From Chrysomallon squamiferum (Eukaryota > Animalia > Mollusca), in contig CM022678.1 in NCBI GenBank assembly GCA_012295275.1, positions 1,240,001-1,304,000 of the forward strand: a DNA stretch of 64,000 nt, written 5' to 3'. The stretch's first letter is position 1. The number at the start of each line of letters is the position of its first letter. The notes beneath the pieces were generated by a model. It saw nothing but the letters and a program-made list of their open reading frames with translations, was not told the origin of the DNA and did not search any database. Of the stretch, positions 6,181 through 64,000 are shown one piece after another. The translations under genes were made by a program, and so were the position numbers.

Positions 6181-6289
6181 AATAAAATTACTTCCGTAGT
6201 ATTAAAACAACAAGAATTTACTGCGTCGTAATAAATATACAGCTAAATAAATAAATAAATAAATAAATAAATACTGTTAATTTTTTCAG

Positions 6290-6585
6290 CGGCTCAGCAT
6301 CTTCCTATTATCTCAGAAGACGTCGGTGACGTCATCCCGGACATTTCCGAAGATCTTTCCGTTACTAAAATTGACGATTCTGACCTCAGCCAGGTCAAGG
6401 CCACGGCCACAAGGCTAAATTTGAAAACTAGGAGACCAAGTGTGGTTGCCTGGAAAGCTCAGTTCGTCGACAAACCGAGCCTCGCTTTCATATCCGTGGA
6501 TGTCGCGAAATCTAAAAATGATAAATTAACTCCGGAACGAAAAGAACGAATAAACCATGCTCTGGATTGGATAAAAAACGAACTG
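6290..6585 (+). CDS. FAM167A: FAM167-family gene, coding exon 2
   Basis: Acceptor ttttttcag| and donor CTG|gtatgt. Translation AQHLPIISED...DLSQVKATATRLNLKTRRPSVVAW...INHALDWIKNEL matches the FAM167A motifs LRLETRRPSYLEW and IDEAIAWLRKEL. Confidence 0.9.
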
Positions 6586-9214: not shown

Positions 9215-9760
9215 GCATTGTTGTATTTGTTCGTAACTGTTAATGCCCGCATTGATAATACAGGTTAACATTAAATATCCAAACAAACGGTATATTTTAA
9301 GTGGGTATGCAGGAAGTAGGCCTGACCCTGTGACCGGTTTTTTCTGCATTGCGCATCAGTGACTGTCTTTTTGTTGTATTAATTGGTCGTTGTTTTACAA
9401 AGATGGTTCAATAAGAGTTCATTCATCTCATAAAGCAAGCGATGGAGGCCGAAATAATTTTGTAAATGTGTGAGAATGAAATGTTTATAATTAAAAGTTA
9501 ATGTTTTCGCTCTAGTTAACTTTTCAAGTAAACAAGTTTGAACCTCGATTTCTGGTCCAAGCCGCAACCCGTTTGTATTTTACTTGACCCACATGATTTA
9601 GAATGTGCGATGTTTCTAAGTATGTAAACTTTCTTATCATTTTTTATCTCGATAAACATTAAAATTTACTTTGATTCCTTACAATAATTCTATTTTTCAC
9701 TGAATAAAACAATTATTAAAAAGTAAAGATGATCATAAATTATTGTAATTACTGTAGCAT
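9215..9760 (+). repeat. Paralogous copy of the putative promoter/first-exon region of the STAND gene (34440-35325)
   Basis: Shared blocks gcattgttgtatttgttcgtaactgttaatgcccgcattgataatacagg, ggtatgcaggaagtaggcctgac, tgtaaatgtNtgagaatgaaatgttta and cgataaacatt...gatgatcataaattattgt. Confidence 0.85.
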
Positions 9761-12055: not shown

Positions 12056-12250
12056 AACTTTGCACAATGGAATTATTTATACTTCCTTCTGCTGTTCACA
12101 ATTAATAAAAAGGAATTTTGGTAATTTCTTCATCAAGGCTAATGAAAATTTTCTCCACGATTACTTTGGCTACGCCTGTGATAGCTGTTGAGTACATATT
12201 GTGCCCGTTTTAATGTAACTCTGACTTAGCGAGTGTTTAACATATTTTCC

Positions 12251-12684
12251 TTATGTCATAATATTCCTACTGAAATGGGAAGATGGAGAAATATACCATT
12301 CGAAAATAGAATGTGGCTATTGTGTAATAACTATGACATCGGAGAAGAGTTTCATTATATATTTACACGTATGTTTATCAAGAATCAAAAGAAATGTTAC
12401 CTACCATTTTTCTGTCAATCTAAATTAAGCACTCATAAGTTTTATAAATTATTTAATTCTAAACAAGCTGGTGTCCTTACAAAACTTTCTACTCTCTGTA
12501 ATCTAATCCTGAAATTTTTCAAATCCTCTGGCTGAAATATTGATATATTGTTTATATTTTATTATTCTGTACATTATTGTAAATCTACCGTCTTGTCATC
12601 CTTGTTATAATTGTTATTATTATATTAAATTTTGTATGAAATCCTCAGACTGCGGCCTGAGTGCAAATAAAGTTCAGTTCAGTT
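12251..12684 (+). mobile_element. 5'-truncated non-LTR retrotransposon (LINE, RTE-X-like) 3' fragment
   Basis: HNIPTEMGRWRNIPFENRMWLLCNNYDIGEEFHYIF resembles the C-terminal Cys/His region of LINE ORF2. Ends in AATAAA plus a (gttca)n tail. The homologous empty site is at about 55040-55085. Confidence 0.8.
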
Positions 12685-19951: not shown

Positions 19952-22666
19952 GACAACTGACAGCTAACGTATCTCATTCTGGTTCTACTGAAATAAGCGG
20001 TAACACTATAAACCGTAAGTTAAAAACTGAAAGTTTTCTCCTCTCTACATGTTTAATAGATAACACAGTACTTAGTAGACATTAGTACTTTTGTCAAACA
20101 TTGTGAACAACATAGAAACGTGCACATCAAATATAGACACAATATATACAAAAAGAAAATTAGTATTTCAACCACTGCTATATATCCGACAGTGATATCT
20201 AATTCTCAGAATTTTTCAGCTAAAACATTTTTAGAAATTATGCATTGAAGTTGTGAGTTATAAATAGGTATTTACTTTGTTTCGCTGTAGGACTGTATAT
20301 TAATAAATGTACCTCTGGGTTTTATGATCTATGGTGAACTAGGATGGTATCCCATTTGTACTTCTATAAAAGTAAGAATGACAACCTTTTGGAGGAACCT
20401 AATTTGTCAAAAAAACCAAAAAAAAAAAAATATTTCCTCACAACTATATTATTTAATGCATGTTATCGATTCTCCTTGGAACAGATTTGGAAAATATATT
20501 TTAGATGATTGTGGTTTAACATATATTTGGATATATCTCAACTTTGATAATGTTAAATGGATACGAGAAACGATATCCAAAATATTACATGATCAATTTC
20601 AACAGTTTTGGAAAAAATCTAAATGAAACGTCTCCAAAGGATATTAATTATAAACATTTAAAAGATGAATTGAAATAATAAACTGTCTTACTTTGCTGTC
20701 TCAAAAGAATGCCAATGTGTTATGTAAATTTAGAACCTCGAAGGCTAAACTTCCTATTGAAACTGGACAATGGTCTGATATTCTAAGAGAAAACAGAAAA
20801 TGTCATATCTGTAATCTTAACAAAATTAGAGATGAATATCACTATATATTTGAATGTAATGATCCTGTATTATTAAATGAGAGAAAAAGTATACCAGACA
20901 AATATATGAGACATCCAAATATAATTTCATATAATAATTTGCTTAACAGTAAAAAGCTATAGTTGTTAATAAGAACTATATGTGAGAAATTATGTCCTTC
21001 ACGTTAAACTTCCACGCTTCTGCATTTTAATTTTGTTTCTATATATCTGTAATACATTCTTCTCTGTACTGCAACCCTACAATTTATGAGAATAAAGTCA
21101 TTGTAATTGTCATTGCCAGCAAACACAATTCATTCTGGTTCTACTGAAGTAGGAAATAGGCATGAATCCAGTATGTTATAAACTGAAAGTTTTCTTTTCT
21201 CTACATGTTTAATAGATAACAGACTACTTAGTAGTCATTAGTATGTGTCTCTCAGACACTGTGACGTGAACAATGTAGAAACGCACAGGTAAATACACAG
21301 ACCAATACGTATAAACATACATATCTGTAACTAGTCTTAGCACATACACAGAATACATACACACAACACATACACACATATATGCACACACATGCATATG
21401 CATACATGCATTACACAGACACACAAATTTAGACACAGTGTATGTATATTAAACTGTATGCTGCTATATTTCTACATATACACTAAAAATGTGTTTCAAA
21501 CACTGGAACTACATTTAATAATTATATCTAATTCTCAGAATTTTGTATGTAAAAACATTTTTAGAAATTATGCATTGAAATTGTGAATTATAAAAATGTA
21601 TTTAATCTGTTTCACTACAGGACCAGTGACAGCAAACATATCTCATTCCGGATCTGCTCAAATAGGAAATAACTATGTATCCGGTAAGTTAAAAACTGAA
21701 AATGATCTCTTCTCTACATGTTTCATAGATAAACATAATACATAGTAGACATTAGTACTTTTCTGTCTCACACTGTGACTTGAACAACATAGAAGCATGA
21801 ATACAAATACATAGACACAATACACATAAATATACATACCTGTACCTAGATGTAGCACATACACAGAACACATACATATACATGCAGATTCATTACACAG
21901 AGACAAACAAGTATATTCAGACAGAGACACAGTGTATGCATGTTAAATGTATATTGTCATATCTCTACACATAGATTACAAAGAGGATTTTGTTTCAAAA
22001 CTGCTGCTTCATTCAGTAATTATTTCTAATTCTCAGTATTTTGTAGGTAAAAAGATTTTCAGAAATTATGCATTTAAATTGTGAATTATAAAAATGTATT
22101 TGCTCTGTTTCACTGCAGGACAAGAGTCAGGAAACATATCTCATTCCGGATCTGCTCAAATAGGAAATAACTATGTAGCCGGTAAGTTAAAAACTGAAAA
22201 TGTTCTCTTCTCTACATGTTTAATAGATAACATAATACATAGTAGTCATTAGTACATTTCTGTCTCACACTGTGACCTGAACAACATAGAAACCTGCACA
22301 TAAATACATAGACACAATACATATAAACATAAATACCTGTACCTAGATGTAGCACATACACATGCAGAAATGCATTACACAGACATACACACAAATATAT
22401 TCAGAGACACTATGTATGTTAAGCTGTATACTGACATATCTCCACACATACACATATATAGAGATAGATAGATTTTTTTTGAAACACTGCTATACATCCA
22501 GTAATTATTTTTAATTCTCAGTATTTTGTACGTAAAAGCATTTTTAGAAATTATGCATTGAAATTGTGAATTATAAAAAAGTATTTACTCTTTTTCACAG
22601 GAGGACAACAGCCAGGAAACATATATCATTCTGGTTCTACTAAAATAAGCGGAAACACTATAAACC
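19952..22666 (+). CDS. Microexon array I: five 63-nt phase 1-1 RHIM-like exons of a truncated paralog (one disrupted by a LINE)
   Basis: Exons 19952-20014 (GQLTANVSHSGSTEISGNTIN), 20291-[LINE]-21170, 21621-21683 (GPVTANISHSGSAQIGNNYVS), 22119-22181 (GQESGNISHSGSAQIGNNYVA) and 22604-22666 (GQQPGNIYHSGSTKISGNTIN). Each has a pyrimidine tract plus AG acceptor and a GTAAGT/GTATGT donor. Confidence 0.6.
20298..21114 (+). mobile_element. 5'-truncated LINE (RTE-X-like) 3' fragment, degenerate
   Basis: ORF pieces MIYGELGWYP...DDCGLTYIW...LHDQFQQFW and LCKFRTSKAKLPIETGQW...ENRKCHICNLNKIRDEYHYIFEC are typical LINE ORF2 C-terminus. Frameshifted. Ends in AATAAA plus a (cattgt)-like tail. Confidence 0.85.
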
Positions 22667-34653: not shown

Positions 34654-34784
<131 letters not shown>

Positions 34785-35111
34785 GTAAAATTTACTTTTT
34801 GAATTTGAAATTTTAATATGGAGTTTTTTCTCTTTAAAATTATTATTGACATACTAGGTCATATAAGATTCACAATAGCTATGTGCTAAATTTCTCAACA
34901 TTATTAAACGAAAATTTATTATTTATTAAATTACATCCCTAAGATAAATTAAATCAAAAGATAAATACTATAATACAGTTTTGTAAATGTCTGAGAATGA
35001 AATGTTTATTATTAAAACTTAATGTTGTCGCTGTCGTTAACTTTTAAAGTGGACAAGTTTGAACTTGTTAATCACGATCTCCGGTCACTGAACGGAACCA
35101 CGTGATTTAAA

Positions 35112-35142
35112 ATGGCGGAATTATTGCATCCGAAAAAGAAAG
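35112..35142 (+). CDS. Predicted first coding exon of the RHIM-like/nSTAND3/ankyrin gene (MAELLHPKKK, phase-1 end)
   Basis: Strong Kozak context aaaATGGcg in a CpG-containing patch, with CACGTG just upstream and donor AAG|gtaaag at 35143. Phase 1 fits all downstream exons. Confidence 0.55.
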
Positions 35143-35169
35143 GTAAAGAAATTTGTAATGCACTTTATG

Positions 35170-35214
<45 letters not shown>

Positions 35215-37729
35215 AATCCCGATAAACATTGAAATTACTTTGATTCTTTATAATAATTTGATTTTTACTGAATGAAACAACTATTAAGTACTATTGATGA
35301 TCATAAATTATTGTGAATACTGCAGAATAATTTTTAAAAGCATTAAACTTTTCTAACCTCTTAAACAATGTTGTTGTTATTATTATTGTTATTATTATTT
35401 TTATTATTATTATCATTATTATTATTATTACTGTATAATATCACTTTTTTCAGTAATGTAATTATATTCATCCCATCTGAAAATTAAACTACTAGGATTT
35501 TAGACATTGTTGACCCAGTGTTAAGTTAATTTAAAGTCCAATCCAATAAACAGTTAATCGTTGAATATTTACACTGTAATATTTATATATTTTTTTATAC
35601 AGACATAAGAGGAAATGTGTCTGTACATTAACATGAAATCATGAAGTGATCAAGATTTGGAATCGAGAATGTAGCAGATTACTGAAAACTGAAAGCTACA
35701 AATTCGCAATGTGTGTTTATACAAGCAGACACAGTGAAGAAAAAATGATTATGTACAAGATGTGACAGCATCATCCTGATTTGAGGTATTGTTCACTATT
35801 TTATAATTATGTTTTATGTCCAGAAATGAAAAGTTTACCATCTTCATATGTTGTATTAAAATAACTAACTAAAAACAGTTACATATGAGCAGTTAGAGAG
35901 GAAAGTGTGGTCTACTGAAGAACACGATGTTAAGTTATCTAGGAGTTTAAACTGAACAAAAAAGAGTGACACCTGCTTTAAATTCATTGTAATACTAGTC
36001 TGGAAAATGCAGAGTGATCAATAACACAAGTGTTACAAAGACATTACAGTAAACTGAGTTGTGAAAGAACCCACAGGCAACAACGAAATGTAAAAGTTGT
36101 GTCAAACTATTTTTATCACCAGTCCCATCTAACACTGAAAACATAATATCAACTGCAGAGTTCATAAAATAGTTTAAGAAAGCTGATTCAGAGAGAAAAT
36201 GTTACTTTGAGTCTCTAGATTACATCTGTAGTTAAAGGATTCAGTGACAAGTAAACATTCAGCTGCTTCCAACATCCAACTCATCTCTCCAGTTAAATGT
36301 TAGTATTGTCAAGTAATCAGTTGCTGTCATTTCCTGTGCTAAGCTGATTCCACTTCCTTTGTTTATATAAAATGTTTTGATGAGACCCAAATGTGCTCCA
36401 ATAAATTAAAAAATAGACTCCTGACTAGCCAGGGCAGAATTGTTAAAGCCTTGTTTTACAGGTAGACTGTTAGTTGATGAAATTACTAATGATAGTGAGT
36501 GTAGTCAAGCTGATACCAAATATATTTGCTGGACATCACTTTTGTATCATTCCTTTTGTCTGCCGTCTTTGTGCGTCTCACGTTCTCCTTCTTGTCATAT
36601 TTACTGTGAATGACTCAGCTGTTGAATACAGTGGAGTTAAATATTCATATCTGATGCACGAACATCCTGCAGTTTGGATAAATTATGGATACAAATTCGT
36701 AGGGTTTCACTTATAGTTTTTGTATAACTTAATTTAGTACTGATATTAAGAAAACGGAGCATATAACTTAGTAAAATTATTCTGATATTATCTATATATT
36801 TTTATTGTTTATTCAGCTTCTCATTTTCATTGTTTATTGAACTTAATTTAGTATTAGTAATGAAAAATGTTTCAATATAAGTTATTGAAACTATTTTTAT
36901 ATTGTTTATTTACTTAATTTATTAAAAGCATTATTATGATATGGGAATTTACATTGTTTATAGAGCATAGTTTGATATTAGGGTTAACAAAACTAAGAAC
37001 ATAACCAAGTAAAACTATTTTTATTATTAGATTTACATAATTTAATAGGGCAGTTCAGAAAACATACTATAAAGGCTTTGTGATTATGATTATACACGAG
37101 AGGAGGTTTTTCAGTTTTTCCTAACAGCGGTGTTTCTCTGTCAGAGAGTATGACAAAATTGTTTATATCTTTATCAGTGCAGTATACCTCAGTTTACTGT
37201 TTTCTTTCTGATAAGAAATTCTAAATGGACAAAATTATTATTTGTGTGTATAAATGTAGCTTTTCAATTTATTGTTTACTTTTTATTATCATTTGTAAAT
37301 TGACTGATACTGATAATAAATTAACAATTCAAACGGATTTATATACAGTCTGACAGACGAAAACATCAAAAAGGAAAATAAAAAGATAAATGATGAGAAA
37401 AAATATAAACATTTACACACTAATTACTCCCGACTATTACAATTACTGTGTTCACCATTATTTACTGTAATACTTAGGTCATATGTCACAGCATCTATGC
37501 ATAATTAGTTAACAATATTGAGCATATTGTATACAGCAATACTGTTTAGATATATTGTATTACACTGTACCCTGCCAAATCTATACATACAGATAAAAGC
37601 TTTTTTTTTTTTTCAGACATTACTACTGTGGTTAATAATTATGTCTAATTCTCACGATTTTGCAGGTAAGAACATTTTGGGAAATTATGCTTTGAAATTA
37701 TGAATTATAACAAACATATTTCACTGCAG

Positions 37730-40700
37730 GACAACAGCTTGCAGACACATCTCATTCTGGTTCTTTTCAGTTAGGAAATAACTATGTATCTGATAAGTTT
37801 AATAGATAACAGAATACACACTAGTCATTAGTAGTACTTTTCTGTCAGACACTGTGACCCGAACAACATTGAAACATGCACAATATACAATGTATATTTA
37901 TCTGTACCTACATTTAGCACATACACAAAACACGTCCATATACACACATATACATGCAGACACACATACACAAATATATTCAAACAGAGTCACAGTGTAT
38001 GTGTGTTAAACTGAATGTTGTTATATCTCTACACATAGATTATAAATCTTTAATAATGTTATGTAATTCTCAGAATTTTGCATGTAAAAACATTTTTAGA
38101 AATTATGCATTGAAATTGTGAATTATAAAAATGTATTTACTCTGTTTCACAGCAGGACAACTGACAGCAGACGTATCTCATTCTGGTTCTATTGAAATAA
38201 GACATAACACTATAAACCGTAAGTTAAAAACTGAAAGTTTTCTCTTCCCTACATGTTTAATAGATAACACAGTACATAGTAGTCACTAGTAGTACTTTTC
38301 TGTCACACATTGTAACGTGAACAACATAGAAACATACACATAAATTCATACACACAATGCATACATACCTGTGCTTACATTTAGCACACACACAAAATAT
38401 CTACCTGCACACATGGAGTAAACAGACACACACAAATATATTCAGACGCAGTGTATGTATGTTCAACTGCATGTTGTCATATCTCTATATCTAGATACAA
38501 AAAACTGCTACTATATTTAATAATGATATCTAATTCTGAGAATTTTGCAGGTAAAAACATTTATAGAAATTATCCATTGAAGGTGTGAATTATAAAAATG
38601 TATTTTCTCTGTTTCACTGCAGTACAACAGTCAGAAAACCTACGTCATTCAGTTTTTTCTCAAATAGGAAATAACTATGGATGCGGTGAGTTAAAAACTG
38701 AAAGATTCTCTTCTCTGCATGTTTAATAAATAACAGAATACACATCACAGTAGTCATTTTCAGAGACACAGTGTATGTATGTTAAAGTGTATACTGTCAT
38801 ATCTCTACGTAAAAACTAAAACATTTATTTGTTTTGTATTTCAAACACTGCTATATCTAATTCTCTAAAATTTCCAGGTAAAAACATTTTTGGAAATTGT
38901 GCATTGAAGTTAAGAATTATAAAATTTTTTCACTGCAGGACAAAAGCCAGGAGACACATCTCATTCTGGTTCTTTTCAATTAGGAAATAACTATGTATCT
39001 GATAAGTTTAATAGATAACAGAATACACACTAGTCATTAGCAGTAATTTTCTGTCAGACACTGTGACCCGAACAACATTGAAACATGCACAATATACAAT
39101 GTATATTTATCTGTACCTACATTTAGCACATACACAAAACATGTACATTATACACACATATACATGCAGACACACAGACACAAATACATTCAGTCAGAGA
39201 CACAGTGTTTGTGTGTTAAACTGCATGTTGTTATATCTCTACACATAGATACAAACTCCTACTATATTTAATAATTATATATAATTCTCAGAATATCTCA
39301 GGCAAAAATATTTTTAGAAATTATCCGTTGAAGGTGTGAATTATAAAAATGTATTTATTCTGTTTCACTGCAGTACAACAGTCAGAAAACATATCTCATT
39401 CTGGTTCTACTGAAATAAGAGATAACACTATAAACCGTAAGTTAAAAACTGAAAGTTTTCTCTTCGCTACATTTTAATAGATAACACAGTACATAGTAGT
39501 CATTAGTACTACTTTTCTGTCACACATTGTAACATGAACAACATAGAAACATGCACATAAATTCATACACACAATGCATACATACCTGTACTTACATTTA
39601 GCACACACACAAAATATCTACCTGCAGACATAGAGTAAACAGACACACACAAATATATTCAGACGCAGTGTATGTATGTTCAACTGCATGTTGTCATATC
39701 TCTATATCTATTTAATAATGATATCTAATTCTGAGAATTTTGCAAGTTAAAACATTTTTAGAAATTATCCATTGAAGGTGTGAATTATAAAAATGTATTT
39801 TCTCTGTTTCACTGCAGGACAACTAGGCCATTTAGCTGTTTTTCAAACAGGAAATAACTATGCATGCGGTGAGTTAAAAACTGAAAGTTTTCTCTTTTCT
39901 ACATGATTAATAAATAACAGAATACACATCACAGTAGTCATTTTCAGAGACACAGTGTATGTATGTTAAAGTGTATACTGTCATATGTCTACGTAAACAC
40001 AAAAACATTTATGTGTTTTGTATTTCAAACATTACTATATCTAATTTTGAGAATTAAATATAGCAGTATTTGAAATACAAAAAAATAAAAAAAAAAAAAT
40101 AAATAAAAATGTTTTTGTGTTTACGTAGACATATGACAGTATAAAGGTTTTTGGAAATTATGCATTGAAATTGTGAATTATAAAAAAAATATTTCACTGC
40201 AGGACAACAGCCAGCACACACATCTCATTCTGGTTCTTTTCAATTAGGAAATAACTATGTATCTGATAAGTTTAATAGAAACAGAATACACACTAGTCAT
40301 TAGTAGTACTTTTCTGTCAGACACTGTGACCCGAACAACATTGTCTGCACAATATATACAATGTATATTTATCTCTACCTACATTTAGCACATGCACAAA
40401 AAACGTACATAAACACACATAACATGCAGACACACAAACACACATAACATGCAGACACACAAACACAAATATATTCAGAGTCACAGTGTATGTGTGTTAA
40501 ACTGCATGTTGATATATCTCTACACATAGATTATAAATCTTTAATAATTATATATAATTCTCAGAATTTTGCAGGTAAAAATATTTTTAGAAATTATGCA
40601 TTGAAATTGTGAATTATAAAAATGTATTTACTCTGTTTCACAGCAGGACAAGAGCCACCAAATATATATCATTCTGGTTCTACTGAAATAAGACATAACA

Positions 40701-42707
40701 CTATAAACCGTAAGTTAAAAACTGAAAGTGTTCTCTTCTTTACATGTTTAATAGATAACACAATACATAGTAGTCACTAGTAGTACTTTTCTGTCACACA
40801 TTGTAACGTGAACAACATAGAAACATACACATAAATTCATAGACACAATGCATACATACCTGTGCTTACATTTAGCACATGCACAAAATATCTACATGCA
40901 GACATGGAATAAACAGACACACACAAATATATTCAGACGCAGTGTATGTATGTTCAACTGCATGTTGTCATATCTCTATATCTAGATACAAAAAACTGCT
41001 ACTATATTTAATAATGATGTCTAATTCTGAGAATTTTGCAGGTAAAAACATTTTCTGAAATTATCCATTGAAGGTGTGAATTATAAAAATGTATTTTCTC
41101 TGTTTCACTGCAGTACAACAGTCAGCAAACCTAGGTCATTCAGTTGTTTCTCAAATAGGAAATAACTATGGATGCGGTGAGTTAAAAACTGAAAGTTTTC
41201 TCTTCTCTACATGTTTAATACATAAAAGAATACAAATCACAGTAGTCATTTTCAGAGAAACAGTGTATGTATGTTAAAGTGTATACTGTCATATGTCTAC
41301 GTAAACAAAAAAAAACATTTGGTGTTTTGTATTTCAAACACTGCTATATCTAATTCTCTAAAATTTCCAGGTAAAATCATTTTTGGAAATTATGGATTGA
41401 AGTTAAGAATTATAAAAAAATTCACTGCAGGACAACAGCTAGCAGACACATCTCATTCTGGTTCTTTTCAATTAGGAAATAACTATGTATCTGATAAGTT
41501 TAATAGATAACAGAATACACACTAGTCATTAGTAGTACTTTTCTGTCAGACACTGTGACCCGAACAACATTGAAACATGCACAATATACAATGTATATTT
41601 ATCTGTACCTACATTTAGCACATACACAAAACACGTCCATATACACACATATACATGCAGACACAGACACAAATATATTCAAACAGAGTCACAGTGTATG
41701 TGTGTTAAACTGCATGTTGATATATCTCTACACATAGATTATACATTTTTAATAATGTTATGTAATTCTCAGAATTTAGCAGGTAAAAATATTTCTAGAA
41801 ATTATCCATTGAATGTGTGAATTATAAAAATGTATTTAATCTGTTTCACAGCAGGACAACTGACAGCAGACGTATCTCATTCTGATTCTATTGAAATAAG
41901 AGATAACACTATAAACCGTAAGTTAAAAACTGAAAGTTTTCTCTTCCCTACATGTTTAATAGATAACACAGTACATAGTAGACATTAGTACTTTTCTGTC
42001 ACACATTGTAACATGAACAACATAGAAACATGCACATAAATTCATACACACAATGCATACATACCTGTACTTACATTTAGCACACACACAAAATATCTAC
42101 ATGCACACGTGGAGTAAAGAGACACACACACAAATATATTCAGACGCAGTGTATGTATGTTCAACTGCATGTTGTCATATCTCTATATCTAGATACAAAA
42201 AACTGCTAATATATTTAATAATGATGTCTAATTCTGAGAATTTTGCAGGTTAAAACATTTTTAGAAATTATCCATTGAAGGTGTGAATTATAAAAATGTA
42301 TTTTCTCTGTTTCACTGCAGTACAACTTTCAGCAGACTCATGTCATTCAGTTGTTTCTACAACAGGAAATAACTATGCATGCGGTGAGTTAAAAACTGAA
42401 AGATTTCTCTTTTCTACATGTTTAATACATAACGGAATACACATCACAGTAGACATTTTCAGAGACACAGTGTATGTATGTTAAAATGTATACTGTCATA
42501 TGTCTACGTAAATGTTGTTGTTGTTTTTTTGTATTTCGAACACTGCTATATCTAATTATCAAAATTTTGCAGGTAAAAACATTTTCAGAAATTATGGATT
42601 GAAATTGTGAATTATAAAAATGTATTCACTCTCTTTCACTGCAGATCATCAGCCAGCAAACGTATCTCATTCTTGCTCTTTTCAAATAGGAAATAAATAT
42701 GTATACG
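37730..42707 (+). CDS. Microexon array II: 13 phase 1-1 RHIM/HET-s-like exons, (A-B-C)x4+A, higher-order period about 1.21-1.26 kb
   Basis: A: 37730-37792, 38939-39001, 40203-40265, 41431-41493 (donor ATAAGT) and 42645-42707 (GTAAGT). B: 38156-38218, 39374-39436, 40647-40709, 41855-41917 (GTAAGT). C: 38623-38685, 39818-39868 (51 nt), 41114-41176, 42321-42383 (GTGAGT). All follow ttcac(t/a)gcag acceptors and all are stop-free in phase 1. Confidence 0.75.
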
Positions 42708-44662
42708 GTAAGTTAAAAACTGAAAGTTTAATAGATAACAAAATAGATAATAGATGTTTAATAGGTAACAATACACAGTAGTGATTAGTACTTTTCTATC
42801 AGACACTGTGATCTGAACAACATAGAAACATGCACAGTTTATATGTATTATTTCTAATTTATATAAAAAAATACATATTTCTAAAAACGGTTACGGAAAA
42901 GAAAATGATTGTGCAAATATTTTTCGGATAACCCATTAATAGCTTAAATAGAATTTACACACTCACACATACACAGACAGATAATAACATATAAACAAAT
43001 AAACACACAGGTATTAACACATACAAATACGTTCAGGCATAGGATAAGTTCTGACTGAGATTTTCTTCTTAAACTGTTAATATAACTCAACATAAATTAA
43101 ACATGACTATATGCCTGTCATTATTATCATCTGTAAATACTAAATATACTGCAGAGTATACTTAACAACAACAAGAAGAACAATAACAACAACAACAATA
43201 AACAACGGGGCAGTTAACGCAATTGCAAGGAATCTGTAATTAACACCGTCGTCACGTAACCAAATCAGAACCCTGCAACGGGCGTAACACTGTTCCCCAA
43301 AAAAGCACTAACATACAGTCCTCCCTGTATCGGATAGATAGATACCCGATTTTTGTCCGTTCTAAGGATATTCAGGGAACAAGGCCATATATGTATTTAT
43401 ATTTAACATTAAATCATTAGAAATACAAAAACACAAGTTTAGATTTAAAGAATATTTGTATTATATGATCTAACAATAGTTATTTACCGAGTAAGCTTAC
43501 AATGCTTCCACTTCCAATTACAAAAAGTTTTACGCCACAATATCACTCTCACGACATACGTGAACATGTGGGAGATATTAAAGATGTTTAAACTAGTACA
43601 TCCCAAGATGTATTTGAATATGCAAGAGTATCAAATTAACGTGCTGCTTAGTGGGACGTTGACATAACAATCAGTTAAAGTTAACATCGGTTTTGACCTC
43701 AAATTCCCACTATTCTCACCCATTGTTTTAGAGATAATAACCCACAGTTAACTTCGATCAGTCTGATCTCAGATTGCCAGCTATTTTCCAAAATAATGGT
43801 TATACTATTTCAATACATAAACATATACATTTTTTTATTTAGGAAAAACCACATAGGATGTGTTTTAACATTCCTTCCCCAGAGTGGTGCCGAGACTGGT
43901 TTCAACTTCAGCAGACATGCAGACGCTAGTGGGTTCCCCAAAACAATATTTCATAATAGCTTATATATTTTTTAAGGAAATATGACATCCATTACGTATT
44001 AAAGAGGAGACTGGCTTCTTCACCACACTTAGCTTATGTAATTCTTAAGCTTTACATATTAAAGATGAGAGTCTGGTTGTCTCTATCACACCAACAATAA
44101 CTCTAAAAAAGAACATTAGTGATAAGAAACAATGGCAGTACTTTTGAAAGTAGTAGGAGTAATTATATGAAATAAATAACAAAGATGGTGTCAGGGCATT
44201 TCCCCACGGATATTCCCCTCGTGACAGTTCCTACCGTCTACCTGTTTTAACTGTGAAATATCCTCATAGTCTGAGTCATTAATAAGGTCTTTTATGGGGC
44301 CAAACATCGCTTAAATTTGGGAATAATGAAACAGTATAAATTATTTTTGTGTTGTTGTTTTTTTGTTTATCAACAAAATTAACTATTTTAAAGTTCACGT
44401 TGTTCTAAAGTTCATGTCAACAAACTACAATCATTATCCAAATATCTGGCTGTTTCTGGATGTTCCGGAAAAACCCAGCAAAAAACAAATACAGTAACAC
44501 TGCACCAGATACTGTTGTGTCTACAGAGACATCACCCAGCGGCTTCAGACTGCGGCAACAGAGACTGCCAGGACTTTCTCCATGGTGCTGCACACAATCT
44601 CCACATGTAAAATGTTTCAAGTAAACAATTTATGTCATATACAATTATCTTTTTATCTCCAG

Positions 44663-44716
44663 ATAATCTGTACAAGACACCAGTAAAGTCTGATGGAACA
44701 GCACCCAATATCAAAG
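44663..44716 (+). CDS. 54-nt phase 1-1 linker exon (DNLYKTPVKSDGTAPNIK)
   Basis: Acceptor tctttttatctccag| and donor AAAG|gtattt; joins in frame to the 44989 exon. Confidence 0.7.
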
Positions 44717-44988
44717 GTATTTTGTTATTTTATTTTTTAATTATTTTTTAAATAGTTTTCAAAGATATTCATAAACAGAAAGAAAATCATCTCGTTACAT
44801 TTACTTCATCTACAATTGTGACATCTTTCTATCATCATTAAATTCTGATGAACTAAAATTATGACAAAAAACTACTGCTTTATTTCAAAAACTTCACATC
44901 TGATGAACAGTCAGAAATTATTTATATTGTAAACTATGTTTTAAACAGTCACTAACAGATACTATTTTTTGTTTATGTTGTAATATAG

Positions 44989-47900
44989 AGTCAACCAGGT
45001 CATTTTTGAACTCAGTTGACTGGAGAGTCTATGTTGAAACAAGAGCAGAGAAAAGAGGTTTGAGACTTTTGAAGAAGTATGGTGTTGTGATTGTAGTAGG
45101 AAGTCCAGGTTCAGGAAAGACAACTCTTGCTTTGAGCATGATGAGACAGATAGAAATAGAAGAAAAAAGAGAATCTTACTCGCTGAGTCATCACACTGAA
45201 TTCAATGACATCCCTGTATCTGGAAATAAGAAATGTACTGTTCTAATTGATGATATATTTGGTAAGACTAATCTTGTTTCAGATTTTATAGACTCATGGA
45301 AACAGAAATTTCCAAAGCTATGGAATCTTGTTCACGACAGATCTTTGAAATGTATTATTACTTTAAGAAAGCAAATATTTTCAGAAAATGAAACAAGTTT
45401 GAAAAATTTTGATCTCTTTAATGAGAATCATGTTCTTGATCTGCAGAATGATGACTGTTGTCTGAATTATTATGAAAAGGAAGAAATTCTAAACAAATAT
45501 CTTAAACAAAAGGATGTTTCAATGAATGAAATTGATAAAAGGACTGTCATTAAAAGTTCATGTACAGAGTTAGGATTTCCTCAGGTGTGTGTGTTTTATG
45601 TTAATAATACAAGTGATGCACAGAAAAGAGAAGTTGAGTTTTTTATGAAACCTATAGAATATTTGACACTGCAGCTGGAAAATATGAAAAAAGACAAAAC
45701 TTTACAGATCAATTACCTGGTTCTACTGCTGATCTTGTTCAAACAAGGCAGTCTCAGCATTGATTCACTGGACCCATTTAAAAATGACACTGACAGTGAC
45801 ATAATAAATTTAGTAAGACAACTAGAGCGAGTCTGTCAGAGTGTAAAAAACACTGGTCTTACAGAGATCAAGGAAACAGCTGATGTACTGTGTGGTACCT
45901 ATTTGAAGTGCTGTGACAATAAATACACATTTATTCATCAGTCTGTGTTTGACTGTTTGTTTCTGATGTTTTCATCAAAGTTTCCAAAGAAAGCAGCAGA
46001 ATTGCTAGAAGTGTGTCCTGTCTCCATCTTGTTAGAATATGTTGTTACGCCTGGAGTGTCTAACAAAAGTCAGATTGCAATGACTGTGAGACCTGACTGC
46101 TTTGATTTTCTTGCTCGCAGATTTACTGACTTGCTGGCATCAGACAATTTCATAGAAATTTGTTCACATCCATCACTGAAAGACGAAGACTTTTTAAAAT
46201 ACCTGATAGAGGAAAAATACTTTTATGGTAGGTTGTCTGAAATTTTACAGCAAAGACTATCTGTAGAACATCAAAAGCAATATTGTTATATTTCATTTGT
46301 ACATGTAAACTCAACTGAAATTATTAATTATATTTCATATCTTATTGACAATGATTCTAGGTACGCATTTTCTTTGAATCTGGAAGGAAATGTTATAAAT
46401 TCAACATCTGTTCCAAGTGAGTGTATCGCGAATAGACAAAGAACATTGTCAAAATATTTCACATCAAAACTGTTGGAAACGGACTTAATAGACATGAAAA
46501 AAGAACTTTTGGATATTTCTTGTTTTTTTGGTGATGAAGATGTTGTGAGAATGTTGCTAGAATCAGGTGTTATTCCAACATTTGATACATTCAGTGCAGC
46601 TGCTTCTTCAATAACAGACAGTGTAACCATACTCAAAGAACTGTTACAGTATAAAAAGGACATGAAATTGAATGTGTGTTCTGACTTGTTATTTATGTCA
46701 CTTTGGTCAGGTAACATGAACATTGCCTGTCTGTTGGCTGACATGATAAACAAAGAGAAAAACAACAGTGAAATCAAGGAGGAAGCTGTAAAACTGCTAT
46801 TGATTAAGTTCTATAGACATAAAAAGGCGGTTGAGAAGTGTCTGGGAGAATCATTAACGTTTAAAGTCGATGTAAACCCTCTGTTTAAGAAACTGATTAC
46901 CTCTGATATAATAAACAAAATTAAACGCATTGCTATCATTGCTGCTGGTCACAATACTTCAGATTTTATAAAAGAAATAGTGAAACTGAAACCTGATTGT
47001 ATAAATGATGAGAACAGAGAGAAAGTACTTTTAGCAGCAGCAATGTGGGGATCTACTGATACAGTGAATTTTCTCATTGACCATATAGGTAATGATACAG
47101 ATGAGAACAACTGGAAGAAAGGTGAAGTACTGAAAGTTGCAGTGATGTTTAACAGTGTAGATGTTGTTCAGTGTCTTCTTGATAAAGGAGCTGATCCTAA
47201 TGTGAATGTAGCTGTTAACAAGAATTTGGTTCAGTTGTTTAAAGAGGAAACTAGAGTGGAAATGTTGCCTTCCGACACACTCCTCCACATTTCAGTTCTG
47301 CGTGGTGACTTAGATATGGTAAAATCACTGATAGAGAGAAATGCTGATGTTAATGCAGTAAACAGAGATGGGAAAACTGCACTCCATGAGACTGTAAAAG
47401 CAGTGACACACAGAAAGGAAATAGCTTTGTTGTTACTGGAAAATGGTGCTGATATTAACATAAAAGATAAAACAAAAAATACAGCATTACACATAGCATC
47501 TCAAATTGACATAGATGTTGTGAAAAACATAGTAAAAAAAGGCGTTGAAATAAATATAACTAACACTCCAGGTGAAACTCCTCTTTTTGTATCCTTAAAC
47601 ACCAACAGACGGGAAATAGCTTCGTACTTACTAGAACAAGGAGCTGATTTCACTTTAACAGATAATGATAAAAATTCTGTTTTACATTTAGCAGCTAAAC
47701 ATGGAAATATAGAAATTGTGACAGGACTGATTGAAAAAGGTTTTGATGTAAATACTAGAAACAGTCGAGGTGAAACTCCTCTTTTTAAAGCTCTAATCTC
47801 TCGTAATAGCAAAGTAATTTGGTATTTACGTGCACATGGAGCTGATATTAAAATAACAGACAGCGATAACAATTCTATTTTGCACAAAGCAGCTAAATAT

Positions 47901-50900
47901 GGAAATATCGAAATTGTGACCGCACTGATTGAAAAAGGTTTTGACGTGAATATTAGAAACAGTCGAGGTGAAAGTCCTCTTTTTACAGCTCTTACTCACA
48001 AGCAACTTCATCCGTCTCTGAAAAATGAAAAATGTAAAGTAGCTTTGTATCTGCTGGAAAATGAAGCTGATCCTAATTTGACAGACAGTGACAGCAATTC
48101 TGTTTTACACCTAGCAGCCGCACGTGGAAATATAGAAATTGTGACTGCACTGATTAAAAAAGGTGTTGATGTAAATGCTAAAAACAGCCAAAATCGAACA
48201 CCTGTTTTTATAGCTGTTGAGGCTGAACAGACAAAAATAGTTTTGTATTTACTGGAACATGAAGCTGATCCTAATTTAACAGACAAAGATAACAATTCTG
48301 TTTTACACGTAGCAGCTGTAACTGGAAATATAGAAATTGTGACAGCACTGATTGAGAAAGGCTTTAATGTAAATATTAAAAACAGCCAAGGTCAAACTCC
48401 TCTTTTTTACACTCTTATTGAATGTACAGGTAATCCATTTCTGTTGGATGAAAAATGTCAAGTATTTTTCTATTTACTGGAACATGGAGCTGATTTTAAT
48501 TTAACAGACAAAGATAACAATTCTGTTTTATATTTAGCAGCTAAATATGGAAATCAAGAAATTGTGTCTGCACTGATCAAAAAAGGTGCTGATATAAATA
48601 TTAAAAACAAACATGGTCAAACTCCTCTTTTTTTCCCTTTTATTGAATGTAAACTTGATCCATCACTGATGGACGAAAAATGTAAAGTATTTTTGTATTT
48701 ACTGGAACATGGAGCTGATCCTAATATTAGAAACAATGATAACAGTTCTGTTCTACACACAGTCGCTGCACATGGAAATCTAGAACTTGTGACTGCACTG
48801 GTTGAAAAAGGTGTTGATGTAAATATTAGAAACAAACATGGTCAAACTCCTCTTTTTTCGACTTTTATTCACTGTAAACTTGATCCATCTCAAATGTATG
48901 AAAAATATAAAATAGTTTTGTATTTACTGGAACATGGAGCTGATTATAATTTAACAGACAATGATAACTATTCAGTTTTACACCTAGCAGCTGCGTATGG
49001 AAATCTGGAAATTGTGTCTGCACTGATCGAAAAAGGTGCTAATTTGAATATTAGAAACACACACGGGGAAACTCCACTTTTTTACATTTTTATTGAATGT
49101 AAATTTGATCCATCACTGATGGATAAAAAATATAAAGTATTTATGTATTTACTGGAACATGGAGCTGATCCTAATATTAGAAACAATGATAACAATTCTG
49201 TTCTATACGCAGTCGCTGCATATGCAAATCTAGAAATTGTGACAGCACTGATTAAGAAAGGTTGTGACGTAAATATTAGAAACAGCCAAGGTAGAACTCC
49301 TCTTTTTGCAGCTCTTGCTTCCTGTCACCGTGATCCATCTCTGAATATTGAAAAATATAAAGTATTTTTCTATTTACTGCAAAATGGAGCTGATCCTAAT
49401 TTAACAGACAATGATAACAATTCTGTTTTACACACAGCAGCTCAATTTGGAAATACAGAAATTGTGGAAGCACTGATTGAAAAAGGTTGTGATGTAAATA
49501 TTAAAAACAGCCAAGGTAGAACTCCTCTTTTTGCAGCTCTTGTTTTCTGTCTGCGTGATCCATCTCTGAATACTGAAAAATATAAAGTATTTTTCTATTT
49601 ACTGCAAAATGGAGCTGATCCTAATTTAACAGACAATGATAACAATTCTGTTTTACACGGAGCAGCTGAATTTGGAAATACAGAAATAGTAAAAGCACTG
49701 ACTGAGAAAGGTTGTGATGTAAATATTAAAAACAGCCAAGGTCATACTCCTCTTTTTGCAGCTCTTGTTTTCTGTCTGCGTGATCCATCTCTGAATATTG
49801 AAAAATATAAAGTATTTTTCTATTTACTGCAAAATGGAGCTGATCCTAATTTAACAGACAATCATAACAATTCTGTTTTACACGGAGCAGCTCAATTTGG
49901 AAATATAGAAATAGTAAAAGCACTGACTGAGAAAGGTTGTGATGTAAATATTAAAAACAGCCAAGGTCAGACTCCTCTTTTTGCAGCTCTTGTTTTCTGT
50001 CTGCATGATCCATCTCTGAATATTGAAAAATATAAAGTAATTTTCTATTTACTGCAAAATGGAGCTGATCCTAATTTAACAGACAATGATAACAATTCTG
50101 TTTTACACGGAGCAGCTGAATTTGGAAATATAGAAATAGTAAAAGCACTGACTGAGAAAGGTTGTGATGTAAATATTAAAACCAGCCAAGGTCAGACTCC
50201 TCTTTTTGCAGCTCTTGTTTTCTGTCTGCGTGATCCATCTCTGAATATTGAAAAATATAAAGTATTTTTCTATTTACTGCAAAATGGAGCTGATCCTAAT
50301 TTAACAGACAATGATAGCAATTCTGTTTTACACGTAGCAGCTGAATTTGGAAATATAGAAATAGTAAAAGCACTGATTAAAAAAGGTGTTGATGTGAATA
50401 TTAAAAACAGCCAAGGTAGAACTCCTCTTTTTGCAGCTCTTGTTTTCTGTCTGCATGATCCATCTCTGAATATTGAAAAATATAAAGTATTTTTCTATTT
50501 ACTGCAAAATGGAGCTGATCCCAATTTAACAGACAATGATAACAATTCTGTTTTATACGGAGCAGCTGAATTTGGAAATATAGAAATAGTAAAAGCACTG
50601 ACTGAGAAAGGTTGTGATGTAAATATTAAAAACAGCCGAGGTAGAACTCCTCTTTTTATAGCTGTTGCTTGCTGTCTGCGTGATCCATCTCTGAATATTG
50701 AAAAATATAAAGTATTTTTCTATTTACTGCAAAATGGAGCTGATCCTAATTTAACAGACAATGATAACAATTCTGTTTTACACGCAGCAGCTGAATTTGG
50801 AAATATAGAAATAGTAAAAGCACTGACTGAGAAAGGTTGTGATGTAAATATTAAAAACAGCCGAGGTAGAACTCCTCTTTTTGCAGCTGTTGCTTGCTGT

Positions 50901-51485
50901 CTGCGTGATCCATCTCTGAATATTGAAAAATATAAAGTAATTTTCTATTTACTGCAAAATGGAGCTGATCCTAATTTAACAGACAATGATAACAATTCTG
51001 TTTTACACGCAGCAGCTGCATTTGGAAATATAGAACTAGTAAAAGCACTGACTGAGAAAGGTTGTGATGTAAATATTAAAACCAGCCAAGGTCAGACTCC
51101 TCTTTTTGCAGCTCTTGTTTTCTGTCTGCATGATCCATCTCTGAATATTGAAAAATATAAAGTAATTTTCTATTTACTGCAAAATGGAGCTGATCCTAAT
51201 TTAACAGACAATCATAACAATGCTGTTTTACACGTAGCAGTTCAAGTTGGAAATATAGAAATTGTGAAAGCACTGACTGAGAAAGGTTGTGATGTAAATA
51301 TTAAAAACAGCCGAGGTAGAACTCCTCTTTTTAAAGCTCTTGCTTTCTGTCTGTGTGATCCATCTCTGAATATTGAAAAATATACAGTATTTTTCTATTT
51401 ACTGGAAAATGGAGCTGATCCTAATTTAACAGACAATGGTAACAATTCTGTTTTACACGTAGCAGTTCAAGTTGGAAATATAGAA
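44989..51485 (+). CDS. Giant exon: nSTAND3-type P-loop NTPase, helical/winged-helix region and long ankyrin repeat array (NLR-like receptor); 3' end lost in the gap
   Basis: Acceptor taatatag| (phase 1, ESTRSFLNSVDWRVYVETRA). YVET motif, Walker A GSPGSGKTT, Walker B VLIDDIFG, IITLRK, GFPQVC and FIHQSV. Dozens of GADPN..TPLF/SVLH..AA ankyrin repeats in an uninterrupted frame of more than 2100 codons. Confidence 0.93.
49260..51485 (+). repeat. About 10 near-identical 225-bp (75-aa, two-ankyrin) coding units
   Basis: gatgtaaatattaaaaacagccaaggt recurs at 49491, 49716 and onward (period 225). Confidence 0.95.
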
Positions 51486-51685
51486 NNNNNNNNNNNNNNN
51501 NNNNNNNNNNNNNNNNNNNNNNNNNNNNNNNNNNNNNNNNNNNNNNNNNNNNNNNNNNNNNNNNNNNNNNNNNNNNNNNNNNNNNNNNNNNNNNNNNNNN
51601 NNNNNNNNNNNNNNNNNNNNNNNNNNNNNNNNNNNNNNNNNNNNNNNNNNNNNNNNNNNNNNNNNNNNNNNNNNNNNNNNNNNNN
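51486..51685. other. Assembly gap (200 N)
   Basis: Run of n; probably a fixed-size placeholder. Confidence 0.99.
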
Positions 51686-62489: not shown

Positions 62490-64000
62490 TCAGCTGTTTT
62501 CAATATTTATATCAAAACCTTTTTCAATCAGTGCTGTCACAATTTCTATATTTCCATCTTTAGCTGCTAGGTGTAAAACAGAATTGTTATCTGTTAAATT
62601 AGGATCAGCTCCATGTTCCAGTAAATATAAAATTATTTTGTTCTCTTCATACTTAACAGCTGTAAACAGAGGAGTTTCACCTCTACAGTTTCTAATGTTT
62701 ACATCTACCCCTTTTTCAATCAGTGCTGTCACAATTTCTATATTTCCACGTTTAGCTGCTAGGTGTAAAACAGAATTGTTATCATTGTCTGTTAAATTAG
62801 GATCAGCTCCATGTTCCAGTAAAAACAACGCTACTTGGGTCTTACGAGAGGCCACAGATGGATCTTTAGAGTAATAAAAAGCTGCAAACAGAGGAGTTTT
62901 ACCTGTACAGTTTCTAATATTTACATCTACCCCTTTTTCAATCAGTGCTGTCGTAATTTCTATATTTTTGTATAGAGCTGCTAGGTGTAAAACAGAATTG
63001 TTATCATTGTTTGTTAAATTTGGATCAGCTCCATGTTCCAGTAAATACAAAATTAGTTTGTTCTGATCATTCTTAACAGCTGTAAACAAAGGAGTTTCAC
63101 CTTTACAGTTTCTAATATTTACATCTAACCCTTTTTCAGTCAGTGCAGTCATAATTTCTGTATTTTCAACTTTAGCTGCTATGTGTAAGACAGAATTGTT
63201 ATCATTGTCTGTTAAATTAGGATCAGCTCCATGTTCCAGTAAATACAACGCTACTTTGGTCTTACGATAGGCAAAGGATGGGTCTACCATAAATAAAATT
63301 TCATTGTAATTAAAAGCTCTAGAAAGAGGAGTTTCACCTCTACAGTTTCTAATATTTACATCTAGCCCATTTTCAAGCAGTGCAGTCACAATTTCTGTAT
63401 TTCCAGGAAAAGCTGCTTCGTGTAAAACAGAATTGCTATTATTGTCTGTTAAATTTGGATCAGCTCCATTTTCAAGTAAATACAAAACTACTTTGTTCTT
63501 TTCATTCTTAACAGCTGTAAACAAAGGAGTTTCACCTCTACAGTTTCTAATATTTACATCTACACCTTTTTCAATCAATGCAGTCATAATTTCTGTATTT
63601 TCAAGTTTAGCTGCTAGGAATAAAACAGAATTGTCATCATTGTCTTTTAAATAAGGATCAGCTCCATGTTCCAGTAAATACAACGCTACTTTGGACTTAC
63701 AAGAGGCAAAAGTTAGATCTACATACAAAAGATATTTAGAGTAATCAAGAGCTGCAAACAGAGGAGTTTCACCTCTACAGTTTCTAATATTTACATCTGC
63801 ACCTTTTTCAATCAGTGCAGTCATAATTTCTGTATTTCCAAATTTAGCTGCTAGGTGTAAAATAGAATTGTTATCATTGTCTTTTAAATAAGGATTAGCT
63901 CCATGTTCCAGTAAATACAACGCTACTTTGGTCTTACTAGAGGCCACAATTTGATGTACACGTAAAAGACCTTCTGGGTAATAAAGAGCTGCAAACAGAG
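62490..64000 (-). CDS. 3' part of a paralogous ankyrin repeat gene (probably another STAND-ankyrin), convergent with the plus-strand gene and continuing beyond the window
   Basis: Open frame of more than 485 codons with the same repeat type (GADPNLTDNDNNSVLHLAA...GVDVNIRNCRGETPLF), including long repeats with a DPS insertion. Confidence 0.88.
   Translation of the reverse strand, partial: LFAALYYPEGLLRVHQIVASSKTKVALYLLEHGANPYLKDNDNNSILHLAAKFGNTEIMTALIEKGADVNIRNCRGETPLFAALDYSKYLLYVDLTFASCKSKVALYLLEHGADPYLKDNDDNSVLFLAAKLENTEIMTALIEKGVDVNIRNCRGETPLFTAVKNEKNKVVLYLLENGADPNLTDNNSNSVLHEAAFPGNTEIVTALLENGLDVNIRNCRGETPLSRAFNYNEILFMVDPSFAYRKTKVALYLLEHGADPNLTDNDNNSVLHIAAKVENTEIMTALTEKGLDVNIRNCKGETPLFTAVKNDQNKLILYLLEHGADPNLTNNDNNSVLHLAALYKNIEITTALIEKGVDVNIRNCTGKTPLFAAFYYSKDPSVASRKTQVALFLLEHGADPNLTDNDNNSVLHLAAKRGNIEIVTALIEKGVDVNIRNCRGETPLFTAVKYEENKIILYLLEHGADPNLTDNNSVLHLAAKDGNIEIVTALIEKGFDINIENS

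Follow-up and report, generated by a model that had tools for sequence, protein, structure and literature searches.

Results and discussion

The stretch analysed here, 64,000 nucleotides (nt) of contig CM022678.1 of the mollusc Chrysomallon squamiferum (positions 1,240,001 to 1,304,000 of the forward strand; hereafter the window), is AT-rich (~30% G+C) and carries a candidate receptor gene made up of an array of mini-exons and one giant exon. Nine of the mini-exons, all of phase 1, are likely spliced in frame onto the giant exon, to judge from their frames and splice sites, which would place a head of about nine 21-residue repeats before an nSTAND3 nucleoside triphosphatase (NTPase) and a long run of ankyrin repeats. 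Tentatively, and with less than even confidence, we read the product as a receptor similar to the NOD-like receptors (NLRs), in which a ligand and oligomerisation driven by nucleoside triphosphate (NTP) would cause the heads to stack as a cross-beta or beta-solenoid structure and to recruit a partner. A preliminary description of this gene had likened the repeats to the RHIM and HET-s amyloid motifs. The nSTAND3-ankyrin receptor, the coding nature of the mini-exons, the effector slot at the N-terminus and an enrichment of RHIM-tetrad-like motifs in that slot are all supported by the results below, whereas membership of the repeats in the RHIM or HET-s families is not.

The giant exon encodes an nSTAND3 NTPase and an ankyrin array

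The giant exon (44989..51485, + strand) is an nSTAND3 P-loop NTPase joined to an ankyrin array. Its frame is the longest open one in the window, extending from 44907 to a run of N, and translation from the acceptor at 44989 yields 2165 residues. That the NTPase belongs to nSTAND3 and is followed by ankyrin repeats had been proposed before, and Pfam agreed: PF20720 matched giant-exon residues 14-172 (~45030-45506) over profile positions 1-154 of 155, with 88.0 bits against a cut-off of 27.2 (E 6.7e-25), and the Walker A P-loop pattern G-x-x-G-x-G-K-[ST] is satisfied by GSPGSGKT. A helical region comes next, and ankyrin repeats begin at ~47.3 kb; Ank_2 was found in 21 stretches (E 6.2e-247), with ankyrin families across the C-terminal part and more than 20 repeats. 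The last 3.2 kb (48234-51485) of this ankyrin region consist of tandem units of 225 nt (75 residues) in 14.5 copies with 89% matches. The array is interrupted by an assembly gap of 200 N (51486..51685) into which it runs, and it is therefore uncertain how many repeats there are and where the gene ends on its 3' side. Within the giant exon, the P-loop (GSGKT at residue 40) comes before any Met, the first of which is residue 50, and upstream coding exons are therefore needed.

Two arrays of phase-symmetric mini-exons

Upstream of the giant exon, 13 copies of a mini-exon were identified on the + strand between 37730 and 42707, where nine had been described before. They are of three types in the order C A B C A B C A B C A B C, the amplified unit being 1.2 kb long with three exons. 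Twelve of the 13 copies are 63 nt long and one is 51 nt, and all 13 are of phase 1 at both ends. Nine copies are splice-competent, having YAG acceptors after a pyrimidine tract and GTAAGT or GTGAGT donors. Four are of type A, namely A1 (38156..38218; 63 nt, phase 1-1, peptide QLTADVSHSGSIEIRHNTIN), A2 (39374..39436; a mosaic whose first 7 codons are those of type B), A3 (40647..40709) and A4 (41855..41917). Four more are of type B, namely B1 (38623..38685; peptide QQSENLRHSVFSQIGNNYGC), B2 (39818..39868; 51 nt through a 12-nt deletion that keeps phase 1-1), B3 (41114..41176) and B4 (42321..42383). The ninth, C4 (42645..42707; peptide HQPANVSHSCSFQIGNKYVY), is the sole type-C copy with an intact GT donor. 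The other type-C copies, C0 (37730..37792), C1 (38939..39001), C2 (40203..40265) and C3 (41431..41493), have G/ATAAGT instead of G/GTAAGT at the exon/intron boundary and a deletion just downstream, and their pyrimidine tract is shortened by a partial loss; by these marks all four are likely pseudo-exons.

Type A peptides end in SHSGS(I/T)EIR(H/D)NTIN, type B peptides in HSV(F/V)SQIGNNYGC and variants of it, and type C peptides in SHSGSFQ(L/I)GNNYV(S/Y). Each mini-exon has 7 fast-changing codons at its start and a core of 13 codons, S-H-S-G-S-x-Q/E-I/L-G/R-N-N-Y/T. As modelled, the array comprises 185 aa, of which 54.6% are N, Q, S, G, T or H and 11.4% are charged, with 3 Pro.

When the unit was compared by BLAST with the whole window, a second, older array came to light at 19952..22666 (+), 15 kb upstream of the main one, in which the core is conserved. 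Its four intact copies (19952-20014, 21621-21683, 22119-22181 and 22604-22666, all +) keep AG and GT, and one unit was disrupted by an inserted element at ~20290-21114. The motif of the mini-exons was found in these two arrays only within the window, and no NTPase exon was found downstream of the second array before 44989. Two open reading frames (ORFs) on the + strand, one at 20291-20962, inside a second-array unit, and one at 12230-12535, share a Cys/His-rich tail (...RKCHICN...DEYHYIFEC...); neither gave a significant Pfam match, and the tail recalls the C-terminal part of ORF2 of a non-LTR retrotransposon. Another observation on the units concerns their well-conserved upstream flank: in 11 of the 17 units of the two arrays, a juxtaposed acceptor- and donor-like site, YAG/GTWARA (e.g., ttttgcag/gtaaaaac), is present about 75-85 nt upstream of the mini-exon (for instance at 38548, 40572, 41039, 42570 and 19882). 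The sequence of this site is reminiscent of recursive splicing or of a scar left where an exon was lost.

Evidence that the mini-exons are coding

All 17 copies (13 in the main array and 4 in the second) are open in the phase-1 frame. The two remaining frames are interrupted by stops, in the main array in 13 of 13 copies for one frame and in 12 of 13 for the second frame, and in the second array in 4 of 4 copies for both; because the copies share ancestry, these counts are not independent.

Divergence also differs between exon and intron. Exons of different types in the main array are 0.63-0.73 identical, compared with 0.89-1.00 in the flanks (80 nt upstream and 22 nt downstream), and mean column identity over the 13 units is 0.735 in the exon versus 0.926 in the first 22 intron bases (the donor flank). 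Exon identity within type A is 0.878, against 0.903 and 0.960 for the flanks, and within type B 0.851, against 0.965 and 0.897. Differences per site are 0.254 in the first 7 codons and 0.047 in the rest for type A, and 0.238 and 0.085 for type B, the latter counted without the shorter copy B2. Ratios of nonsynonymous to synonymous differences (pN/pS) between the exon types of the main array are 1.6-3.8, but these values rest on small numbers and are confounded by recombination between types, which inflates apparent substitution counts, as A2 with its type-B 5' part illustrates; this confounding weighs against the interpretation proposed here. The donor-dead type-C copies, which serve as an internal control, have a pN/pS of 0.64.

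Identity within the second array amounts to 0.97 and 0.95 for the core (nt 24-63) and to 0.82 and 0.65 for the distal intron; when the two arrays are compared, it is 0.846 for the core and 0.673 for the distal intron, two of the four second-array units being offset by one base in this comparison. As its exon cores are better conserved than its introns, the second array seems to be under selection. The exon and intron patterns of both arrays, although confounded by recombination, suggest a selected, translated sequence, and they agree with the frame-specific openness in favouring the earlier view that the mini-exons are real coding exons.

Gene model upstream of the giant exon

A candidate first coding exon of 31 nt begins with an ATG at 35112 and ends in phase 1 at 35142 (+), where it is followed by the donor GTAAAG; a TGA at 35103-35105, in frame and upstream of the ATG, fits a first exon. 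A linker exon of 54 nt (44663..44716, +) is of phase 1-1 and has a good acceptor. The mini-exons are compatible in phase with both the linker and the giant exon, and their splice sites are near consensus. When the ATG exon, the nine mini-exons, the linker and the giant exon are joined by coordinates, the resulting 12-exon model has 7137 nt and 2379 codons with 0 stops. The exon coordinates and the stop-free phase-1 joining of the preliminary description all hold. Junction codons cannot be stops in this model, because the exon ends are C or G and the exon starts are GA, TA, AT or AG.

The ATG exon, weakly supported as it is, constitutes the least certain part of the gene model, and this too is a point against it. 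A paralogue of the exon-1 region (35000-35262) was found at 9479..9692 (+), with ATG codons at 9603 and 9610 and a GT at 9620. The ATG is conserved in this paralogue, and the exon is shorter and diverged in comparison to that at 35112; the frame of the 9603 ATG does not fit the mini-exons, whereas that of the 9610 ATG would. The paralogue precedes the second array, so that a joint duplication of first exon and array seems to have taken place, which lends mild support to the ATG exon. Two simple repeats lie nearby: a (TC)51 microsatellite (34660-34762) precedes the candidate first exon by 350 nt, and the intron of this exon contains a (TA)23 run (35166-35211) that is absent from the 9.6-kb paralogue.

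Mollusc relatives and their N-terminal slot

BLASTP against a collection of 5.8 billion proteins gave 5 matches among 5767 candidates, and these closest proteins are four of Gigantopelta aegis, 42-46% identical (E 1.6e-99 to 3.8e-93), and one of Haliotis; Chrysomallon itself contributed none of the matches. A HMMER scan of 1.84 billion representatives identified 887 relatives at E<=1e-3, 150 of them among the matches listed; the ten that were looked up comprised nine mollusc proteins (Gigantopelta, Haliotis, Littorina, Mizuhopecten and Solemya) and one Logan protein. When the initial 300 residues of the NTPase region served as the query for shorter proteins, one Mytilus protein only (E 4.8e-4) and no Chrysomallon transcript fragment were found. 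The mollusc nSTAND3-ankyrin paralogues, including G. aegis LOC121387848, LOC121387078, LOC121373407 and LOC121373015 and the Haliotis, Littorina, Solemya and Mizuhopecten proteins, share the NTPase-ankyrin body with the Chrysomallon gene, the closest being 42-46% (BLASTP) or 44-48% (phmmer) identical to it over the NTPase and the helical region. Their heads are variable, with short repeats or a single [VIFL][QHN][VIFL]G located 23-66 residues before the NTPase, and they differ from the Chrysomallon gene in that the 21-residue repeat is absent from them. A profile of the 13 units with their intron-encoded flanks matched 0 of 6159 candidates at E<=10 in the 5.8 billion proteins.

N-terminal domains were surveyed in 10 relatives picked for their long N-termini: one has a caspase, one a CARD and three a HEPN_DZIP3 domain, one gave coiled-coil-type matches only, and in four nothing was recognised. 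Judging from their domain matches, P0016, P0139, P0147, P0063 and P0132, with an N-terminal Peptidase_C14 (E 2.2e-50), CARD (E 4.2e-18) or HEPN_DZIP3 (E 1e-22 to 2e-27), are all-in-one receptor-effector architectures. The caspase, CARD and HEPN domains mark the N-terminal slot in these picked relatives as an effector or adaptor slot, in line with what had been proposed for the family. The heads of other relatives contain 10-residue repeats (P0003), 15-residue repeats (P0002) or single motifs, such as NVHVGDVTHKHY in P0004 and SVQFGCTTHKHY in P0010. Splicing of N-terminal cassettes was considered for Haliotis rubra LOC124266880 and rejected, as all 15 sequences examined (of a cluster of 33) have the same N-terminus up to the P-loop; these isoforms thus differ downstream of it.

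Motifs were counted in 78 relatives, those in which a P-loop could be recognised and the NTPase boundary is preceded by 25 residues or more, the others being dropped. In the zone from -70 to -15 before the NTPase, [VIFL][QHN][VIFL]G occurs 12 times in 11 proteins, which corresponds to 3.13 per 1000 residues, compared with 0.31 further upstream and 0.30 in the rest, an approximately tenfold enrichment. None of 2000 composition-preserving shuffles reached 12 zone motifs. It has to be held against this result that the relaxed pattern was picked after the data were seen. The strict tetrad (V/I)-Q-(V/I/L/C)-G was matched 3 times in the zone, by two Solemya velum proteins alone (VQVG and IQIG in P0095, KAL5012198.1; IQLG in P0061, KAL5016380.1) and 25-58 residues before the NTPase boundary, and 3 matches were reached in 17 of 2000 shuffles. 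The heads of these two proteins gave no match to the RHIM model of Pfam. In the Chrysomallon gene model, the FQIG of C4 is at -34 from the NTPase, and the repeats lie mostly at 21-residue steps (-34, -55, -76, -97, -118). The coincidence of the motif zone of the relatives with the FQIG of C4 supports a gene model in which at least C4, the last mini-exon, and the linker are joined to the NTPase. The position of this motif also suggests that the array arose from a single ancestral motif by expansion.

Relationship to RHIM and HET-s motifs

In the available part of PMC9444067, the core tetrad of RHIM is given as (V/I)-Q-(V/I/L/C)-G, and HET-s repeats have 21 residues, one repeat per solenoid rung, in that of PMC7889193. 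The Chrysomallon repeat has the length of a HET-s rung, an agreement in length only, and Q-(I/L)-G is present in 9 of the 17 copies (7 of 13 in the main array and 2 of 4 in the second).

A series of comparisons weighs against the amyloid reading, and most directly against family membership. The strict tetrad is found in none of the 17 copies, the first position being F, S or A, and the four type-A exons of the main array have (I/T)-E-I-R at the position of the tetrad. No Pfam family, including RHIM (PF12721), HET-s, PP and sigma, was matched by any of 12 mini-exon peptides at E<=10, although the sensitivity of this test is low because the peptides are only 20 aa long. A profile of 13 peptides gave 9 matches at E<=10 in the PDB, and no HET-s chains; these matches are CDR1 (complementarity-determining region 1) loops of antibody light chains and one viral non-structural protein, with E 0.5-7. 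When the exon profile was compared by hhalign with a motif alignment of 13 relatives, which had been picked by pattern, the probability was 1.2% (P 0.045). Pfam found no RHIM in the N-terminal stretches of five relatives, where the only matches, none of which passed the cut-off, were Pentapeptide_2 (E 0.032), EAD10 (E 0.37) and Xre-MbcA-ParS_M (E 0.057), and a PDB sequence search with the head of Solemya P0095 gave CarD and similar proteins only, at E>0.2. Moreover, Pfam recognised no domain, effector domains included, in 28 plus-strand ORFs between and beside the arrays. The assignment of the repeats to RHIM or HET-s thus finds no support from Pfam, PDB profiles or hhalign.

As a candidate neighbour with a matching motif, the window contains the second array. 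A 19-nt word of the exon was also sought in metagenomes; the 16 loci found were rejected as chance matches, since none of them shares the exon context.

Proposed mechanism and alternative readings

In the mechanism that we tentatively favour, the ankyrin array would sense a ligand, upon which the NTPase would oligomerise in an NTP-dependent manner and so gather the N-terminal repeat arrays. These would then adopt a stacked cross-beta or beta-solenoid fold with one 21-residue repeat per rung, a fold predicted from the richness of the array in G, N, Q, S and H, its poverty in Pro and charge and its 21-residue period. Through this fold, a partner with the same motif would be recruited or templated, and the fold would thereby take the place of a death-fold adaptor. 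The symmetry of every mini-exon means that skipping could change how many rungs are present, and which. The preliminary description had likened this logic to that of fungal NWD2, a comparison from which the gene model departs, with nine repeats in one chain against the single repeat of NWD2. In contrast to that system, nine rungs per chain would not need oligomerisation of the receptor to nucleate, which weakens the NWD2 analogy and is a further point against the mechanism.

It is possible, although we find it the less probable reading, that the mini-exons are coding and the array forms a variable head of non-amyloid nature. It might be a beta-helix that is soluble and monomeric, or a flexible spacer; it might also be exposed to diversifying selection, as an alternatively spliced tag of specificity or as a surface facing the ligand. 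The faster divergence of exons than of introns, mostly in the first 7 codons, would suit such a head, as would the skipping that symmetric exons permit, the missing profile link to RHIM or HET-s and the poor fit of nine repeats per chain to a one-repeat receptor logic. A structural model bears on this as well. AlphaFold2, run on a single sequence, predicted periodic strands for the head of Gigantopelta P0003 with its 10-residue repeats, with ten-residue block means of the predicted local distance difference test (pLDDT) of 61-87 over residues 91-250 and a whole-chain mean of 48.1. Foldseek gave 0 matches to this head at E<=0.001, and the weak top rows (E>0.5) were soluble beta-solenoids. The modelled head, a regular monomeric beta-structure, is thus as compatible with a soluble beta-helix as with amyloid, which again speaks against the favoured mechanism. 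On the other hand, relatives use the slot that the array would occupy for effectors or adaptors and show, at that very position, an enrichment of a RHIM-tetrad-like motif, and composition and 21-residue period fit functional amyloid repeats as they are known from the available part of PMC7889193.

It seems unlikely that the array lies outside the mRNA of the NTPase. In that case the receptor would start at an ATG at 44632, or at another nearby first exon, and the arrays would be relics of a duplicated 5' end, exons of another transcript, or untranslated. The 44632 ATG, in the intron just before the linker exon, reads in frame into the linker and is a rival start without mini-exons, and some relatives, P0005 and P0009 among them, begin right at the NTPase without an N-terminal extension; both findings detract from the favoured model. 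Four of the 13 copies of the main array have already decayed, and the second array has no NTPase exon downstream of it. Against this stand the frame-specific openness of 17 of 17 copies, the conservation of the core while introns diverged, the exon-specific divergence in the main array, the near-consensus splice sites on both sides of the mini-exons, the fit of their phase to linker and giant exon, the good acceptor of the linker exon and the motif of relatives, which stands where that of the last mini-exon stands.

That each unit is a separate small ORF of 40-65 residues (e.g., M-Y-L-L-C-F-T-A-G-Q..., which continues through the supposed donor to a stop) in a tandem family of small-peptide genes is highly improbable: even though the nine spliceable units of the main array lie within stop-to-stop frames of 40-65 codons that hold an in-frame ATG, this ATG sits in the pyrimidine tract, the sequence outside the 63 nt is conserved at all codon positions, as in an intron, while the 63 nt vary, the exact AG/GT boundaries and the constant 63-nt length would be left unexplained, and the donor-dead copies have only 31-39 codons, except for one 94-codon run-on, and no ATG near the exon.

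Returning to the stacked-head mechanism, a bolder form of it, which we consider distinctly improbable, would be a prion-like solenoid of many rungs, with an exon for each rung, rungs that selection keeps distinct and exon skipping can shuffle, and a homotypic 'barcode' set by splicing; the upstream array, which has the motif only, would then encode a partner or regulator.

Comparison with known systems

The amyloid motifs associated with fungal and bacterial NLRs (HET-s/NWD2, other HRAMs, PP and sigma, and BASS) resemble the Chrysomallon arrangement in that an N-terminal motif, a STAND NTPase and highly similar tandem repeats are combined. The repeats also agree with HET-s in their 21 residues and with these motifs in being rich in G, N and Q with alternating hydrophobic residues, as far as can be seen from the part of PMC7889193 available. 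They differ in number, with up to nine per chain in the gene model as opposed to one in NWD2, and in being encoded singly by exons; moreover, the NTPase is of nSTAND3 type rather than NACHT or NB-ARC, and the host is an animal. No neighbouring effector with a recognised killing domain was found in the window, and none of the HET-s, PP and sigma Pfam families was matched, in contrast to the fungal and bacterial systems.

Schistosome micro-exon genes and Dscam-type exon clusters likewise consist of small exons in tandem, symmetric in phase and conserved in length, whose coding parts diverge faster than the intron, an arrangement that permits variation through the choice of exons, and they encode secreted or surface proteins. 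The Chrysomallon exons, by contrast, head a putative intracellular STAND NTPase, and alternative splicing is only a possibility here.

With metazoan RHIM proteins, the Chrysomallon gene shares a short motif centred on Q-x-G at the place of a death fold, before a STAND NTPase and repeats. Invertebrate RHIMs, including those of amphioxus RHIM-NACHT-repeat proteins, and tandem copies in some invertebrate proteins are described in the portion of Kajava et al. 2014 (PMC4262963) that was available, so that the general idea of an animal NLR with an amyloid motif is already known. The Chrysomallon repeats differ from those proteins in having neither the strict tetrad nor a match to PF12721, in adjoining each other without long linkers and in the clade of their NTPase, and the layout with one exon per repeat was not found in the same portion of PMC4262963. 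Lineage-specific expansions of immune STAND and ankyrin proteins have been reported in marine invertebrates, RHIM being unmentioned in the available part of that article (PMC8195603). According to the accessible sections of two reviews (PMC7889193, PMC12881547), families of amyloid signalling motifs are far fewer in animals than in fungi and bacteria. In a literature search that covered articles in part, neither mollusc nSTAND3 receptors with such heads nor an exon-per-repeat array was found. The preliminary description knew of no earlier account of the exon array, and none was found in those sources either, whereas the three-part logic on which it built is already in print for animals, as the accessible portion of PMC4262963 attests.

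Taking the relatives into consideration, this is a lineage-expanded receptor family of molluscs in which short Q-x-G motifs occupy a slot otherwise held by caspase, CARD or HEPN, and in the Chrysomallon gene the motif would have become a whole exon-encoded array. This would widen the picture of amyloid motifs in animals and provide concrete peptides for testing. The layout of one exon per repeat represents a clean natural case of the growth of a repeat protein and could show whether splicing is able to tune an oligomerisation module. If the reading as a solenoid with a 'barcode' were true, molluscs would hold diverse and unexplored immune motifs of amyloid type, which so far come mainly from fungi and bacteria.

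Other features of the window

An open stretch of 104 codons at 6271-6582 (+) resembles a coding exon and encodes an acidic, Ser-rich sequence followed by WKAQFVDKPSLAFISVDVAKSKNDKLTPERKERINHALDWIKNEL; it gave 0 Pfam matches and no usable match in the ESM Atlas. At the other end of the window, the ankyrin tail of a convergent gene was found on the - strand at 62490-63998 (Ank_2, E 4.2e-97), with 502 residues open to the window edge. No NTPase is visible for this gene within the window, and its ankyrin repeats are in the style of those of the giant exon. Genes for NTPase-ankyrin receptors may be clustered in this region.

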